DNA of 64,000 nucleotides, taken from Escherichia coli O157:H7 (lineage in GTDB: Bacteria > Pseudomonadota > Gammaproteobacteria > Enterobacterales > Enterobacteriaceae). Position numbers and translations under genes: made by a program. The notes beneath the pieces are model-generated. The model did no database searches. It saw only the letters and a list, made by a program, of their open reading frames with translations, and had not been told where the DNA came from. The stretch lies in NCBI RefSeq assembly GCF_013167455.1, contig NZ_CP038328.1; one strand, 5' to 3'. Positions 19,703-34,770 of the stretch are shown here, one piece after another. Positions within the stretch are counted from its first letter, which is position 1; each line of letters starts with the position of its first letter.

Positions 19703-20084
19703 TTCCTGTTTGATTTACTGGACACTATAGAAGGACAGAATGCCTTCCTCACTCGAATCACATCAATTAAGGAGGTTCAACATGTTTCATTCCACAAGTC
19801 ATCAGGCTGTAATTATGGCAGCATCAGTTTGTGCCACAGACCTTTTCCGCTTCACTTTGAGCCTGATTCATTTCTACCTGACCGGCTCGCCTCTATCTTT
19901 TTAATCCCCGCTTTATCCAAATTGCATTGCCAGAATGCCGACAACAGACTGACATTCAAATCCTGACTACCTCCAATAGTCTGACCGTACACCTATATAG
20001 TTTTAATTTTCATCAATCCATTTAACTATCGTTTAATTGTTGTCACATAGGATTCTGCCGTTTTTAACAATGCAGGATAATAAG

Positions 20085-20378
20085 ATGAAAAAAATGTTAT
20101 TTTCTGCCGCTCTGGCAATGCTTATTACAGGATGTGCTCAACAGACGTTTACTGTTGGAAACAAACCGACAGCAGTAACACCAAAGGAAACCATCACCCA
20201 TCATTTCTTCGTTTCGGGAATTGGACAGGAGAAAACTGTTGATGCAGCCAAAATTTGTGGCGGCGCAGAAAATGTGGTTAAAACAGAAACCCAGCAAACA
20301 TTCGTAAATGGATTGCTCGGTTTTATTACTTTAGGCATTTATACTCCGCTGGAAGCGCGGGTGTATTGCTCACAATAA
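20085..20378 (+). CDS. bor: Bor-family outer-membrane lipoprotein (serum-resistance moron)
   Basis: MKKMLFSAALAMLITGCAQQTFTV... lipobox and near-identity to lambda Bor; opposite strand to the lysis genes. Confidence 0.85.
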   Translation: MKKMLFSAALAMLITGCAQQTFTVGNKPTAVTPKETITHHFFVSGIGQEKTVDAAKICGGAENVVKTETQQTFVNGLLGFITLGIYTPLEARVYCSQ

Positions 20379-21680: not shown

Positions 21681-21723
21681 TTCGTCATCTCTCACCTCGC
21701 GATATTTGCGGGTGCTGTGTTGG

Positions 21724-21747
21724 AAATAAAAAGGCCACGCAACGTGG
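21724..21747 (-). terminator. Intrinsic terminator-like hairpin upstream of the holin
   Basis: ggccacg ttgc gtggcc followed by TTTTTATTT on the minus strand. Confidence 0.5.
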
Positions 21748-21816
21748 CCACCAGAATTATTTCCCCACCAGTTCACTTACCTCTTTCACCGTCTGATTAA
21801 ACCGCTCTGACTCAAG

Positions 21817-22131
21817 TTAAACACCTAACGCCCGACGCCCCAGCGCCATTGCTGCTTTTATTGTGGAACCGAATCCCATAAAGAAATCAGCAACCAGATC
21901 ACCAGGTCGACTACTGGCATTGATTATTTGCCTGAGCATATCCGCCGGTTTCTCGCACGGATGTTTACCCGGGTAGAACTGAACGGGCTTATGCGTCCTG
22001 ACATCGGTATAAGGCACGGAGACTGATACGGAGAAATAGCGCCGGTGAGATTTAAACTCATCCAGCAATTCAGAAGATTTGCAATTCAGTGAATCATGAG
22101 ATACCACCAACTGGTGGTAGGATTGTCTCAA
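21817..22131 (-). pseudogene. Remnant of a beta-class N6/N4 DNA methyltransferase (C-terminal part only)
   Basis: 104 aa ORF with ..FYPGKHPCEKPADMLRQIINASSRPGDLVADFFMGFGSTIKAAMALGRRALGV*, matching the HPxxKP and DPFxGSGTT-type AdoMet motifs, but lacking the upstream DPPY catalytic region; AT-rich foreign DNA begins right at its 5' end. Confidence 0.6.
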
Positions 22132-22301
22132 CTAGTGAGCTTTATACATTTAAGTGCGATGCACAGATAATAACCACGCCAATGGAATATCACACACAAA
22201 ATTGATAGAACACTAACAATAAGCCACAAAATAATTCACAATTTATTTTTACAGTGGATAAGTAGCAAAGTAGTGAATGTGAATAACGGCTAACTAAGAT
22301 G

Positions 22302-22330
22302 AAACAAAAAGCCCCACAATATGTGGGGCT
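22302..22330 (-). terminator. Rho-independent terminator ending the cargo cassette
   Basis: Minus strand agccccaca tatt gtggggct followed by TTTTTGTTT. Confidence 0.65.
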
Positions 22331-22388
22331 CCTTCGCGATTTATAGTAAAATAATCGATTCTCTAGCTGAAAAAATCTTTAAAAATTA

Positions 22389-22622
22389 TCAGCAATACGC
22401 AAGTTTTTTACCGTCATCCGGTACTAGTTTGATCACTACACCAGGATTCTTACGCTCTAACATCTGAGTTTGACTCCATGTAATACCAAAGGTTTCCATT
22501 GGAGATGCATTGCCAGCAAAGAGTTCGGCGACGACTTTAGCTGCCTCAATCTCTATCTGCTCATGATGTTTCATAAAAATCCCCTTGTTCAGCACTAAGC
22601 TGTAGTTGCTTCTTTGAAGCAT
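22389..22622 (-). CDS. Small hypothetical protein (cargo cassette gene 2)
   Basis: 77 aa ORF; more likely 61 aa from ATG at 22574 (MKHHEQIEIEAAKVV...) preceded by AAGGGGA Shine-Dalgarno; low GC. Confidence 0.4.
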   Translation of the reverse strand: MLQRSNYSLVLNKGIFMKHHEQIEIEAAKVVAELFAGNASPMETFGITWSQTQMLERKNPGVVIKLVPDDGKKLAYC

Positions 22623-22765
22623 AAAGGCAACAAAGTTTGTTACCTGAAGATGTATAAAGTAAAGCGTAGTACATTTTGTGTGTGCTTTGTGTGGATCCAG
22701 ATTGCATCAACTAAAAGAGGTTTTCAATACTTTTGTAATGATTCTGGAGAAATTAAGAATCTAAC

Positions 22766-23308
22766 TCACACTGATTGGTTAGGTAAAACGCTCCTAAGCA
22801 CCATTGCGCAACCACCTCGTTCGTAATCAGCAATGTACTCAAAACCACTTTCAGTATAGTATCTTATTGCCCCATCAACTGGACTAACTAAAGCTATCGA
22901 ATCAATAGATTCACCCTGAAGGTTCAGAAATCGTGCATATGCAGAGAAGCAATCCAAAACGATACCAAGCATCTGATGGTCTAGGTCTTCATGTGCATCA
23001 TTACGTTTTTCCATCCAGCAAATATGCACCGCATTTTTCGGCTTACAGTAACACCCAAATGCAAATCCAATAGGCTCCCCACGATAATAAACAACTAGTT
23101 TTATCGGGTGTTCTTCCATCATATCCATAAACACTCGCGACTTTAGTCCGGGATCCCACCGCAGTTTATTGTTAGCCTTGAGGAACTCCATATCTTTTAG
23201 TACCAGCTCGTCGGCATATACGAGCCCTAACGACTTATGAGGGAAGCGCCCTTTTAAATACTCTGCAACATTTTTAAATACTGCTGTTTGGAAGGCTTGA
23301 AACATCAT
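22766..23308 (-). CDS. Hypothetical protein with GNAT-like C-terminal signature (cargo cassette gene 1)
   Basis: 180 aa; C-terminus ..SIALVSPVDGAIRYYTESGFEYIADY.. resembles GNAT motif B, but no canonical Q/RxxGxG acetyl-CoA loop; roughly 40 percent GC against about 52 percent in flanking phage DNA. Confidence 0.55.
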   Translation of the reverse strand: MMFQAFQTAVFKNVAEYLKGRFPHKSLGLVYADELVLKDMEFLKANNKLRWDPGLKSRVFMDMMEEHPIKLVVYYRGEPIGFAFGCYCKPKNAVHICWMEKRNDAHEDLDHQMLGIVLDCFSAYARFLNLQGESIDSIALVSPVDGAIRYYTESGFEYIADYERGGCAMVLRSVLPNQSV

Positions 23309-23337
23309 GTCGATCCAGACGAGACGAAAGTTTAAAT

Positions 23338-23367
23338 TCTACCTACTCGCCGAATACCATTTCAATG
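23338..23367 (-). promoter_or_regulatory. Candidate sigma70 promoter for the cargo cassette
   Basis: Minus strand TTGAAA, 18-bp spacer, TAGAAT, about 25 nt upstream of the 23308 start codon. Confidence 0.35.
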
Positions 23368-23386
23368 CCACACATCTAAAATTCCG

Positions 23387-23414
23387 AAAAAAAACCCGCA
23401 CATCAGCGGGTTTT
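23387..23414 (-). terminator. tR'-like intrinsic terminator downstream of the late promoter
   Basis: Minus strand aaaacccgc tgatgt gcggg followed by eight T; about 50 nt downstream of the predicted late promoter. Confidence 0.75.
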
Positions 23415-23459
23415 CTACTTTTTATTAAAGCCGGACACACAATGCCTATCATTGAGAAA

Positions 23460-23488
23460 ATATTATCCATTTTTTTTGAAAAATGCAA
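23460..23488 (-). promoter_or_regulatory. Late promoter pR'-like (Q-dependent antitermination site)
   Basis: Minus strand TTGCAT, 17-bp spacer, TAATAT located 30-60 bp downstream of the Q stop codon. Confidence 0.6.
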
Positions 23489-23519
23489 GCATCATGTCGC
23501 CATTTTCGTCGAAAATCAT

Positions 23520-24272
23520 TCATCTCGTCACTTTCCTCAATTGTGTCTCAGCATACGCTTCTTCCTGCCAGCACTTTGTAACCAGTTTATCAATGACATC
23601 TGCATATCCTTTGTACCACTGATAATCCGTCAGGTCTGGTACCAGCTTCTGGACATGAAGCCGCGCCAGTGTGGTTGGTAAACGGCTAAACCGGTTTCCA
23701 TTGCAACGCCCACAAACCTTATAAACAGGCGTGCCATGAAGCCTGGTTCTTTTTTCATCCAGGACAATACCTTTACCCTTACACCCTCTGCACGCTGTGC
23801 TGACTTCTCCCTTACCATGACAATGCTGACACAGTTCCTTCACCCACTCTTCCTTGATAACAGATTCCCCGCTTCTGGAGTGTTTCACCACCTCGCGCAA
23901 TACATCATGAAATCCAGTACCAGCACAATGCTCACAGCGAGCCTTACTTGCCGCAGACCTGGAATAATCAGCAAAGGCAAAATTCACAAGGTAAGGAATG
24001 ATCTGTAGCCGGGTTTCTTCACTCAATTTGTTCAATGTCGGGTTATCCAGTGCCATCGCGTAATTGAGCAGACCTTCAATCGCAAACTGAGGATCCTGAA
24101 CACCAACTTTTGCCAGGAATAAGGCAAACCCAAGCGGTGCTTTCGACTGCACCATCCCCTGCGCAGCCATTACATCCGTAATTGTTAAACCACCAGAGCC
24201 TGTCGCCGGTGCGTCATCGCTCAATTTTGGAGATTTTGGGGAGTAATATTTCGGTAAGGCTTCAAAGTTCAT
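23520..24272 (-). CDS. Q: Late-gene antitermination protein Q
   Basis: 250 aa with CxxC...CxxC zinc-binding motifs (CEHCAGTG, CQHCHGKG, CRGCKGKG), followed by promoter and terminator. Confidence 0.85.
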   Translation of the reverse strand: MNFEALPKYYSPKSPKLSDDAPATGSGGLTITDVMAAQGMVQSKAPLGFALFLAKVGVQDPQFAIEGLLNYAMALDNPTLNKLSEETRLQIIPYLVNFAFADYSRSAASKARCEHCAGTGFHDVLREVVKHSRSGESVIKEEWVKELCQHCHGKGEVSTACRGCKGKGIVLDEKRTRLHGTPVYKVCGRCNGNRFSRLPTTLARLHVQKLVPDLTDYQWYKGYADVIDKLVTKCWQEEAYAETQLRKVTR

Positions 24273-33290: not shown

Positions 33291-33640
33291 TGGAGCCATA
33301 CAGCCTCACACTCGATGAGGCCTGTCATTTTCTCAAGATATCCAGACCGACTGCCATTAACTGGATACGCACAGGGCGTCTTCAGGCAACACGCAAAGAT
33401 CCCACTAAGAATAAATCTCCTTACCTCACAACACGACAAGCCTGCATTGCGGCTCTTCAGTCTCCGCTGCATACTGTCCAGGTGAGCGCGGGTGATGGCA
33501 TAACAGAGGAAAGAAAATGTCACTCTTCCGCAGAGGTGAAATATGGTACGCCAGTTTCACATTGCCGAACGGTAAAAGATTTAAACAGTCTCTTGGAACA
33601 AAGGACAAAAGGCAGGCGACAGAACTCCATGACAAGCTAA
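33290..33640 (+). CDS. xis: Excisionase (P22 Xis-like)
   Basis: 116 aa from [37 protein letters not shown]..; HTH DNA-binding region; overlaps int start by about 124 nt. Confidence 0.8.
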
Positions 33641-34680
33641 AGGCTGAAGCATGGCGGGTCAGCAAACTTGGTGAAATACCTGATATAACGTTCGAGGAAG
33701 CGTGTGTCAGGTGGCTTGAAGAGAAAGCACATAAAAAATCGCTGGACGATGACAAAAGCCGGATCGGATTCTGGCTTCAACATTTCGCAGGAATGCAACT
33801 AAGAGACATTACTGAATCAAAAATTTATTCAGCAATGCAGAAAATGACGAACCGGCGTCATGAGGAAAACTGGAAACTCAGGGCAGAAGCATGCAGAAAA
33901 AAAGGGAAACCTGTTCCAGAATACACGCCAAAACCAGCGTCCGTTGCAACGAAGGCTACGCATCTTTCATTTATAAAGGCCCTACTAAGAGCCGCAGAGC
34001 GTGAATGGAAAATGCTGGATAAGGCACCAATTATTAAAGTGCCTCAACCAAAGAATAAACGGATCCGCTGGCTGGAGCCCCATGAAGCACAAAGGCTGAT
34101 TGATGAATGTCCGGAGCCATTAAAGTCTGTTGTTGAATTTGCACTGGCAACAGGCTTAAGACGCTCGAACATCATCAACCTTGAATGGCAACAAATAGAT
34201 ATGCAGCGCCGGGTGGCATGGATAAACCCGGAAGAGAGTAAATCAAACCGCGCAATTGGCGTTGCGCTGAATGATACTGCATGTCGCGTATTGAAAAAAC
34301 AAATCGGGAATCATCACCGTTGGGTATTTGTGTACAAGGAAAGCTGTACCAAACCAGACGGAACGAAAGCGCCAACAGTAAGGAAGATGCGGTATGACGC
34401 AAACACAGCCTGGAAAGCGGCGCTGAGACGGGCTGGTATTGATGATTTCAGATTTCACGACTTGAGACACACCTGGGCAAGTTGGCTGGTTCAAGCCGGA
34501 GTCCCGTTGTCAGTGTTACAGGAAATGGGAGGCTGGGAGTCTATCGAAATGGTTCGTCGATATGCTCACCTTGCACCTAATCACCTTACCGAACACGCAC
34601 GGCAAATAGACTCGATCCTGAACCCATCGGTCCCAAATTTGTCCCAGTCAAAAAATAAGGAAGGTACTAATGATGTGTAA
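33517..34680 (+). CDS. int: Tyrosine integrase (P22 Int-type, thrW-specific)
   Basis: 387 aa [22 protein letters not shown]...; C-terminal [16 protein letters not shown]...VRRYAHL catalytic motifs; stop 15 nt from the tRNA 3' end. Confidence 0.95.
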
Positions 34681-34694
34681 CTTATTGATTTTAA

Positions 34695-34770
34695 TGGTGC
34701 CGATAATAGGAGTCGAACCTACGACCTTCGCATTACGAATGCGCTGCTCTACCAACTGAGCTATATCGGC
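34695..34770 (-). tRNA. thrW: tRNA-Thr (anticodon CGU)
   Basis: Minus-strand gccgatatagctcagttggtagagcagcgcattcgtaatgcgaaggtcgtaggttcgactcctattatcggcacca; cloverleaf with GGTTCGA T-loop, anticodon loop uuCGUaa, encoded CCA. Confidence 0.95.

Follow-up and report, generated by a model that had tools for sequence, protein, structure and literature searches.

A prophage cassette of Escherichia coli O157:H7 that probably encodes a divergent GNAT-fold protein and a small interacting partner

Introduction

What is encoded by the AT-rich DNA that separates the Q antiterminator gene from the lysis genes in a prophage of Escherichia coli O157:H7, and does this DNA behave as a unit distinct from the phage operon around it? 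We addressed this question in a 64,000-nucleotide stretch of the chromosome (NCBI RefSeq assembly GCF_013167455.1, contig NZ_CP038328.1), hereafter the window. An initial annotation, made from the letters alone, had singled out the block as a two-gene cargo cassette, and RefSeq calls both gene products 'hypothetical protein'. We refer to the two genes and their products as orf180 and orf61, after the product lengths in amino acids (aa). Our analysis led us to the reading, to which we assign a probability of about 85%, that the block is a self-contained moron encoding an interacting pair made up of a GNAT-fold protein and a partner.

Results

Boundaries of the cassette

The boundaries of the block were set against cassette-less E. 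coli prophages with the same YdfT-type Q and the same lysis flank (L043, L044 and L045). In these relatives (91-96% homology), the alignment on the Q side ends at 23388, just past the tR' hairpin, and resumes at 22126 inside a methylase gene. Therefore, the insert spans 22127-23387. Its GC content is 0.392, against 0.493 and 0.510 in the two 2-kb flanks. The initial annotation had drawn an AT-rich block near 40% GC at 22131-23420, which agrees with our limits to within about 30 bp; on the right it extends over the tR' hairpin, a part of the Q unit.

The slot of the relatives sampled contains a 67-aa open reading frame (ORF) and an intact gene for a 350-aa methyltransferase (compared at L043:909-1961), sometimes with an extra 141-aa ORF. 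Since the relatives have the first two intact, the sequence comparison indicates that the N-terminal two-thirds of the methylase and the whole 67-aa ORF were lost when the cassette was gained. The Q-to-methylase slot is a variable cargo site: with these breakpoints and the other cargo in the relatives, the earlier description of a lambdoid Q-to-lysis cargo slot holds. The alternative cargo includes a 141-aa protein (WP_000217632; L044:2193-2618) and a 67-aa protein (WP_000917724; L043:2112-2315), from strains JJ1887 and 30EVA1, and neither had a match in PADLOC.

The insert ends in a non-coding 3' tail, and the segment 22127-22388 that contains this tail has only 32.8% GC. Between E. coli and Citrobacter, the similarity of the cassette DNA is limited to 23413..22385, which covers a tR'-like hairpin, the promoter, the genes and the spacer and excludes the 3' tail; the tail is not common to the cassettes of other genera. 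Across hosts, the GC content of the cassette ranges from 0.31 to 0.46 against 0.32 to 0.59 for the surroundings, and in most hosts the cassette is the AT-richer of the two.

Transcription signals

The promoter TTGAAA-18-TAGAAT that had been proposed for the cassette is present upstream of orf180 (P1 in Table 1). In a chance check of the region, promoter-like matches were not enriched (2 against 4.4 expected), and terminator-like matches numbered 6 against 1.7 expected. What makes P1 credible is the presence of TTGAAA-18-TAAAAT at the equivalent position in a Citrobacter and a metagenomic locus (L021 and L023), where the cassette DNA is only 76-82% identical. A promoter-like element also stands upstream of the large gene in most other loci examined. 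At the far end, the clean terminator that had been reported turned out to be a 13-bp stem with a T-run. A strong terminator was found within about 90 nt past the small-gene stop in all loci examined, in any slot or orientation.

The spacer between orf180 and orf61 is 191 bp long and structured. It contains a second, internal promoter-like element, TTGAAA-17-CAATCT, which is the spacer's most conserved non-coding block in the E. coli group, with the invariant pattern TTG...T.ATGCAAT (alignment A2). A promoter-like element at or after the large-gene stop occurs in the great majority of loci; the spacers inspected include those of L029, L031, L035-L038, L041, L049 and L052. The elements of the Vibrio and Aeromonas types, of which the first and the last are better promoter matches at the equivalent position, read TTGACC-16-TATAAT, TTGATA-16-TATAAT and TTGACC-17-TAGAAT, and that of Photorhabdus reads TTGAAA-17-CATATT. 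A reverse-strand promoter in the spacer palindrome was also considered and was ruled out by the strong forward-strand promoters at the equivalent position in distant loci.

The leaders predicted from the spacer promoters are 74-156 nt long, with one or two stable hairpins each. Hairpins were found in the leaders of 14 of the 14 loci folded, and some of them are terminator-like: the first leader hairpin resembles an intrinsic terminator in Photorhabdus, Pragia and L025. The terminator-like hairpin of Pragia reads GACACGG...CGTGTC-T8. For six spacer leaders, RNAalifold returned -2.5 kcal/mol and 4 pairs with double changes, a weak covariation, and our claim of conserved RNA structure extends no further than the constant presence of a hairpin. 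Rfam gave only sub-threshold matches on 21700-23700, mostly to the tR' hairpin. From these signals we infer that the small gene may be transcribed separately, from its own promoter. This transcription is probably attenuated, and the spacer might serve as an attenuator or give rise to a small RNA.

Pairing of the two genes

Each of the 36 loci gathered at the outset has the small gene 87-225 bp past the large one, with both on one strand, and every locus later fetched via either gene shows this adjacent order. The intergenic gap is likewise 87-225 bp in 21 representative pairs. Thus the large gene always leads, in agreement with the earlier remark that the order is unlike that of GNAT toxin pairs. 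The pairwise identities of the large proteins follow those of the small proteins (r = 0.92; Mantel 0/5000), with a mean identity of 39% for both families. Judged from these sequences, there is no partner swapping between the large and small families. Across Enterobacterales, Vibrio and Aeromonas, both ORFs are conserved in order, length and start site, even where identity falls to 20-45%.

For the predicted complex, we built a fused AlphaFold (AF2) model from a paired alignment of 21 couples, with a 30-residue Gly-Ser linker. The model reached a predicted template modelling score (pTM) of 0.82 and a mean predicted local distance difference test (pLDDT) of 84.9. The pLDDT was 91-97 over most of the GNAT part, 87-96 in the small core, about 40 in the linker, and 42-54 in the last dozen or so residues of orf61. 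We estimated that two independently floating domains with about 40 disordered residues would give a pTM near 0.6. Against this estimate, the observed 0.82 means that AlphaFold places orf61 in a fixed position on the enzyme. The model therefore suggests, indirectly, that orf180 and orf61 form a complex.

Distribution and genomic slots

The two families have one taxonomic range, and both are confined to Enterobacterales, Vibrio and Aeromonas. The enterobacterial hosts are Escherichia, Citrobacter, Cronobacter, Erwinia, Proteus, Morganella, Photorhabdus, Xenorhabdus, Pragia and Limnobaculum. The pair is rare. Among 5426 complete E. coli genomes, 97 carry it, intact and at least 99.8% identical in every case; it was also found in 1 of 50,697 phage records and in 4 of 100,044 species-representative genomes. 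A query spanning Q and the lysis flank matched at least 3286 E. coli genomes, mostly via Q, and only 97 E. coli genomes carry the pair. This comparison, with a cassette GC content of 39%, speaks against a uniformly present segment of phage-like composition, which the initial annotation had named as an outcome at odds with its proposal. Among the matches listed, the prophage occurs mainly in cattle-associated E. coli O157:H7. A search of viral contigs for distant relatives with alignment A4 gave no confirmed match, alignment A3 being too divergent to serve as a query. The sole plasmid match to orf180 is at CP044351.1:39590-40100, in an unannotated 111-kb conjugative E. coli plasmid, with 67% identity in three pieces; this copy may be frameshifted or reflect an assembly error.

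The pair occupies at least five different prophage slots. It lies in the Q-to-lysis slot in E. coli, in Proteus (L003-L006) and in the metagenomic phage L038; past the lysis genes, beside a pyocin-S-like gene, in Pragia; in the tail cluster, between gpK-like and gpJ-like genes, in Erwinia; adjoining the integrase in Citrobacter freundii; and, in P2-like prophages from Vibrio and Aeromonas, between the portal gene and the replication gene gpA (or ogr), where its neighbours include an AHH nuclease and a putAbiC protein. In L041 and L042 the pair has umuDC-like genes beside it and runs antisense to the late operon. Whatever the slot or orientation, a terminator follows the pair in all loci examined and a promoter-like element precedes it in most, which suggests independent transcription that would suit expression in a lysogen. 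In P2, the gpA-portal interval is occupied by old/tin, and in E. coli it has been shown to be an anti-phage hotspot (Rousset et al., PMC9122126).

Several neighbours of the pair are cargo in their own right. In Pragia, the pyocin-S-like protein is accompanied by a 100-aa neighbour (L007:7444-9037). In Vibrio, we noted the AHH-nuclease protein with a 191-aa neighbour (L050:956-2262) and the putAbiC-domain protein (L051:2453-3538), and PADLOC returned no match for the Vibrio neighbour-cargo proteins scanned.

The large protein

The predicted structure of orf180 (pLDDT 86) is a mixed alpha/beta GNAT fold with the order b1-a1-a2-b2-b3-b4-a3-b5-a4-b6. Motif B is represented by Y151...G155-F156, with Y151 four residues before G155-F156. 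Across 21 diverse pairs (down to about 31% identity), F156 and E100, the acidic residue at the end of strand b4, are invariant, and Y151 is at least 90% conserved. By contrast, the Q/RxxGxG/A pyrophosphate loop between b4 and a3 is replaced by E107-D-L-D-H-Q112, a correspondence assigned by position before helix a3. This acidic, glycine-free loop lies in R102-NDAHEDLDHQ, within the motif W-M-E-K-R-N-D-A-H-x-D-L-D-H-Q that is invariant in enterobacteria, and is itself invariant or acidic in the enterobacterial subfamily. The initial annotation had seen a GNAT-like C-terminal signature and no canonical acetyl-CoA loop, and both points are borne out. Given this acidic loop devoid of glycine, binding of the acyl donor may differ from that of acetyl-CoA in canonical GNATs.

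Neither protein could be placed in a well-characterised family by profile or structure searches, just as neither had been recognised at the outset. For orf180, Pfam gave no match even at E = 10, and the same was true of 28 of 28 family members; NCBIfam had no match to orf180 or orf61. The profile of the orf180 family found nothing below E = 1.7 among all Protein Data Bank (PDB) sequences, a set that covers GNAT toxins such as TacT and AtaT, and PDB sequence profiles for orf180 and orf61 gave chance matches only (E > 1; AhpC and Nup160). Both proteins belong to PHROGs of unknown function, that of orf180 being 11949. A structure search of BFVD returned nothing closer than a template modelling (TM) score of 0.58, and one of the AlphaFold database (AFDB) returned only family members and unnamed GNAT-like proteins. 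The large family forms 28 clusters at 90% identity, with 36 representatives among 1.84 billion proteins, and its full-length members have 173-197 aa. In the literature searches, WP_021519681 and WP_000680348 were mentioned in no paper, and keywords for a GNAT prophage defence module yielded nothing relevant.

The small protein

The small ORF had been given as 61-77 aa with a good Shine-Dalgarno sequence. The 61-aa start stands: it is preceded by AAGGGGA, it is the one called by the NCBI annotation pipeline (PGAP), and both the Shine-Dalgarno sequence and the start are conserved in every orthologue. We rejected the 77-aa form, whose upstream in-frame start is not conserved in orthologues. The small family comprises 55 homologue clusters, all of 48-88 aa, with the conserved core LVAELFAxGxSPMExFGxxWxQxxxLERxxP, to which even the most divergent small proteins still align. 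In the predicted structure, orf61 is all-helical, with a long helix, a short helix and a third helix, and without an N-terminal strand. Even at E = 10, Pfam gave no match for orf61 or for a 17-member alignment, including to DUF1778/ribbon-helix-helix (RHH) and helix-turn-helix (HTH) models.

The C-terminal tail of orf61 is flexible and ends in Cys. A Cys occurs in the last 15 residues (22389-22433 in orf61) of 20 of 21 diverse partners and nowhere else in those 20; L040 lacks it. Its position shifts, as seen in the endings ..LAYC, ..RACC, ..AACGGIR, ..GCLQHAR and ..LTCHSNDKCQKTA. Distant small proteins end in -RAA, -KTA or -NVA, which we take to be loosely reminiscent of ssrA-type ClpX tags. 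The free flexible tail and its Cys fit a labile or sensing partner and prove nothing. Two further roles for orf61 were considered and rejected. An acyl carrier is ruled out by the S/T before the invariant Pro, which is N or G in some members, and a secreted peptide or arbitrium-like signal is disfavoured by the lack, by eye, of a hydrophobic signal-like segment.

Comparison with known systems

The cassette has the features by which morons are known: a predicted promoter and terminator, a position between conserved phage genes, a deviant GC content and a sporadic presence among relatives. In this it resembles other prophage morons and exclusion cargo, such as bor and lom of lambda, stx in the Q-S slot, and old and tin of P2 in the gpA-portal interval, which are likewise independent promoter-gene-terminator units of deviant GC. 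It also has slots in common with them, namely Q-to-lysis in the present prophage and gpA-portal in P2-like ones from Vibrio and Aeromonas, whereas their proteins are unrelated to orf180 and orf61.

The GNAT/DUF1778 (RHH) toxin-antitoxin (TA) systems TacAT, AtaRT, KacAT and ItaRT (PMC9177977, PMC6698736) are also two-gene modules, in which a GNAT-fold protein is paired with a small protein that binds it. However, the likeness of orf180 to the solved GNAT toxins is at the level of the fold only, without sequence similarity. In those systems the antitoxin gene comes first and the genes are tightly coupled and overlap, while here the large gene is first in all loci and a gap of 87-225 bp contains a promoter-like element and hairpins. 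In addition, orf61 is all-helical with no match to DUF1778/RHH, and orf180 is acidic and lacks the Q/RxxGxG/A loop. We therefore rejected membership, since the pair differs from these systems in every specific trait tested (toxin similarity, RHH partner, gene order, gap and motif A).

TopAI-YjhQ (yjhX-yjhQ, in KpLE2 of E. coli K-12) likewise combines a small protein with a 181-aa acetyltransferase-like protein in prophage-like DNA (PMC4666372), in the opposite gene order. Membership in this family was rejected as well: hhalign gave a probability of 0.6% for alignment A1 against YjhQ, over 16 columns of a generic YY..GF motif B, and 0.04% for alignment A5 against TopAI. By sequence, the pair is apparently an undescribed two-gene family and a member of neither GNAT/DUF1778 nor TopAI-YjhQ.

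Two further comparisons concern orf180 alone. AcrVA5 is a GNAT-fold enzyme on a mobile element, as orf180 is. However, AcrVA5 works as a minimal protein on its own and uses normal acetyl-CoA chemistry, in contrast to the obligate partner and non-canonical loop of orf180. With RimI and the N-terminal acetyltransferases Naa20 and Naa40, orf180 has 10-11% identity, with scores indistinguishable from those of dozens of other GNATs, and it differs from them by an extra N-terminal helix (residues 2-21).

Prophage setting

The prophage is on the minus strand and spans the window from its left end to 34680. It combines a lambdoid early and late region with a P27-type terminase, HK97-type head genes and sheathed-tail genes. 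The window sequence is identical in O157:H7 and some non-O157 genomes, and the phage record vB_EcoM-689R6 contains a 99.9% identical copy of the cassette region. Read along the minus strand, the order is a DUF968 gene, Q, the cassette, a truncated DNA methyltransferase gene, a lambda-family holin, lysozyme and Rz/Rz1 (Table 1).

Thousands of E. coli genomes carry a ydfT with 90-96% identity to the Q gene. A zinc-ribbon module is probably present in this Q (YdfT/Qin type), which has weak NCBIfam matches (E 4e-6 to 4e-5) to DnaJ-type CXXCXGXG zinc-finger models and to anti-TRAP. A candidate late promoter, TTGCAT...TAATAT, was read by eye in the Q-linked segment. The tR' hairpin lies between A4 and T8. 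It was scored as a terminator on the plus strand, also reads as one on the minus strand, and may act bidirectionally. Just past Rz/Rz1, on the plus strand at 20037-20378, lies an iss/bor-like lipoprotein gene (PGAP 'increased serum survival lipoprotein Iss'), a second moron of this prophage. The DNA around it (19800-20300) is also AT-rich, with about 38-39% GC.

Table 1. Features of the cassette and of its prophage surroundings (positions in the window)
Feature	Position	Strand	Remarks
Inserted cassette, 1261 bp	22127..23387	-	Breakpoints against L043/L044/L045
Candidate cassette promoter P1, TTGAAA-18-TAGAAT	23336..23365	-	10/12 matches
orf180, 180 aa, divergent GNAT-fold protein	22766..23308	-	
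Second, internal promoter-like element, TTGAAA-17-CAATCT	22699..22727	-	Just past orf180 stop
Putative orf61 leader, roughly 125 nt	22575..22698	-	9-bp hairpin at 22645..22625
orf61, 61 aa, small helical partner	22389..22574	-	phrog_11292, unknown function
Cassette intrinsic terminator	22306..22334	-	13-bp stem, 6 GC pairs, T-run
Non-coding AT-rich 3' tail of insert	22127..22305	.	No ORF of 40 aa or more in the ORF list
Q antiterminator gene, 250 aa, YdfT type	23520..24272	-	Upstream flank, outside cassette; phrog_127 'anti-termination protein Q-like', E 2e-107; PGAP 'antitermination protein'
Q-linked late-promoter/tR' segment	23388..23519	-	Cassette starts directly downstream
tR' hairpin, G+C-rich, then T8 on minus strand	23391..23414	-	Part of Q unit
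DNA methyltransferase C-terminal remnant	21817..22131	-	Downstream flank; phrog_6952, phrog_67; PGAP 'incomplete; missing N-terminus'
Integrase	33517..34680		Adjoins tRNA-Thr (34695-34770) and proA

Discussion

The computation yields the insertion boundaries, the cassette's promoter and terminator, the adjacency and co-divergence of the genes, a GNAT fold with catalytic-type Glu and Tyr, and several accessory slots. That the two ORFs are chance products of AT-rich recombination junk would be consistent with the absence of annotation anywhere and with promoter-like matches that are not above chance. This explanation is refuted by conservation, and we give it practically no weight: the ORFs are conserved across Enterobacterales, Vibrio and Aeromonas, the predicted structure has a pLDDT of 86, and the genes are intact in 97 E. 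coli genomes.

We read the block as a horizontally acquired, mobile transcription unit whose two products, both cytoplasmic, function together. What such a moron does is a question on which we are more tentative. We infer that it may act as a toxin-antitoxin or as an exclusion or abortive-infection-like module, and rate this function at somewhat below even odds. In such a module, the GNAT-fold acyltransferase would be the effector, held in check by the small partner acting as inhibitor or sensor. The helical core of orf61 would bind the GNAT protein and leave the flexible, Cys-bearing tail free. In the lysogen, the module would be expressed from its own sigma-70 promoters, the extra promoter yielding orf61 in excess; an internal promoter before the small gene fits toxin-first TA modules such as mqsRA. 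A superinfecting phage or a stress would then deplete or displace the partner, and the released enzyme would modify a macromolecular target needed for phage growth, so that the competitor phage is blocked. Of the mechanisms considered, this one is the most economical. A more specific version, which we consider rather doubtful, is a previously unrecognised two-component family for prophage immunity or exclusion that moves as a unit between lambdoid and P2-like slots. In it, the acidic/His cluster of the GNAT effector would reflect a different donor, a metal or non-acetyl chemistry, and the Cys tail of the helical regulator would be a sensor or degron.

The case for defence comes from the genomic context, in that the pair occupies accessory slots, the gpA-portal slot of P2 among them. 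Several points weigh against an interacting defence pair of this kind. Neither protein matches PADLOC-DB v2.0.0 at E <= 1, the 77-aa form included, nor does any of ten neighbouring or alternative cargo proteins match PADLOC. The hotspot argument would extend from E. coli P2 phages to those of Vibrio and Aeromonas by extrapolation. A recognisable DNA-binding domain was not found in orf61 with Pfam, and the coupling of the genes is looser than in classical type II TA operons. The large proteins are acidic (pI 4.6-6.2 in 18 of 21), and tRNA-acetylating toxins are basic. With its acidic, glycine-free loop, orf180 could even be no acyl-CoA enzyme at all. Finally, the predicted complex is drawn from pTM and pLDDT only, and it would fit an enzyme-subunit or enzyme-substrate relation equally well.

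Such a relation is the basis of one alternative, in which an enzyme and its substrate or specificity subunit serve another lysogenic-conversion trait: the GNAT would acylate the Lys/Cys tail of the partner, or the partner would be an adaptor through which a small molecule or a host protein is modified, for example in detoxification, metabolism or stress tolerance. We regard this as unlikely. No exporter, protease or tailoring gene travels with the pair in the loci fetched, the tail Cys shifts in position and is missing from L040, and the known GNATs with a detoxifying role work without a partner. Still less do we favour a role in counter-defence or host takeover, where the GNAT-fold enzyme would modify and so disable a host immune or physiological protein with orf61 as cofactor or regulator, in the style of acr-aca. 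AcrVA5, a GNAT anti-CRISPR, disables Cas12a in this way. The fold and catalytic-type residues of orf180, and a small downstream gene that resembles the acr-aca order, agree with this idea. So does the phage-borne location: in lambdoid phages the pair is in late-operon positions, where Q-modified polymerase would read through. However, the pair has its own promoter and terminator, and its orientation is independent of late transcription (L041 and the P2-like loci), which points to expression in the lysogen. Moreover, Pfam gave neither an HTH nor any other match for orf61, whose predicted binding partner is the enzyme and not DNA, and exclusion genes make up most of the cargo in the gpA-portal slot of P2 (PMC9122126).

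The polarity of a TA module might also be reversed, with orf61 as the growth inhibitor and the GNAT-fold protein neutralising it, as in TopAI (85-aa toxin) and YjhQ (181-aa antitoxin). The sizes are near-identical to those of TopAI-YjhQ (PMC4666372), and the genes form a strict pair with a predicted complex. Nevertheless, hhalign shows no relationship to YjhQ or TopAI, and the gene order is opposite. The structured leader of the small gene can be set beside the topAI operon, which is under leader control, while the gene with an extra promoter is normally the antidote. Taken together, this polarity seems improbable to us.

Uncharacterised cargo pairs are common in prophage hotspots. Whatever its function, a GNAT-fold protein whose loop is acidic and free of glycine, and which comes with an obligate partner of 60 residues, poses a clean problem for biochemistry, and the pair illustrates the exchange of cargo between the lambdoid Q-to-lysis slot and the P2-like gpA-portal slot. 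If the moron is indeed an exclusion or abortive-infection module, it would be a compact addition (about 1 kb) to the defence repertoire, in which the GNAT chemistry would be unusual and the fold of the partner new. It would also be a trait for a prophage of O157:H7, in which competition among prophages shapes the carriage of Stx phages.

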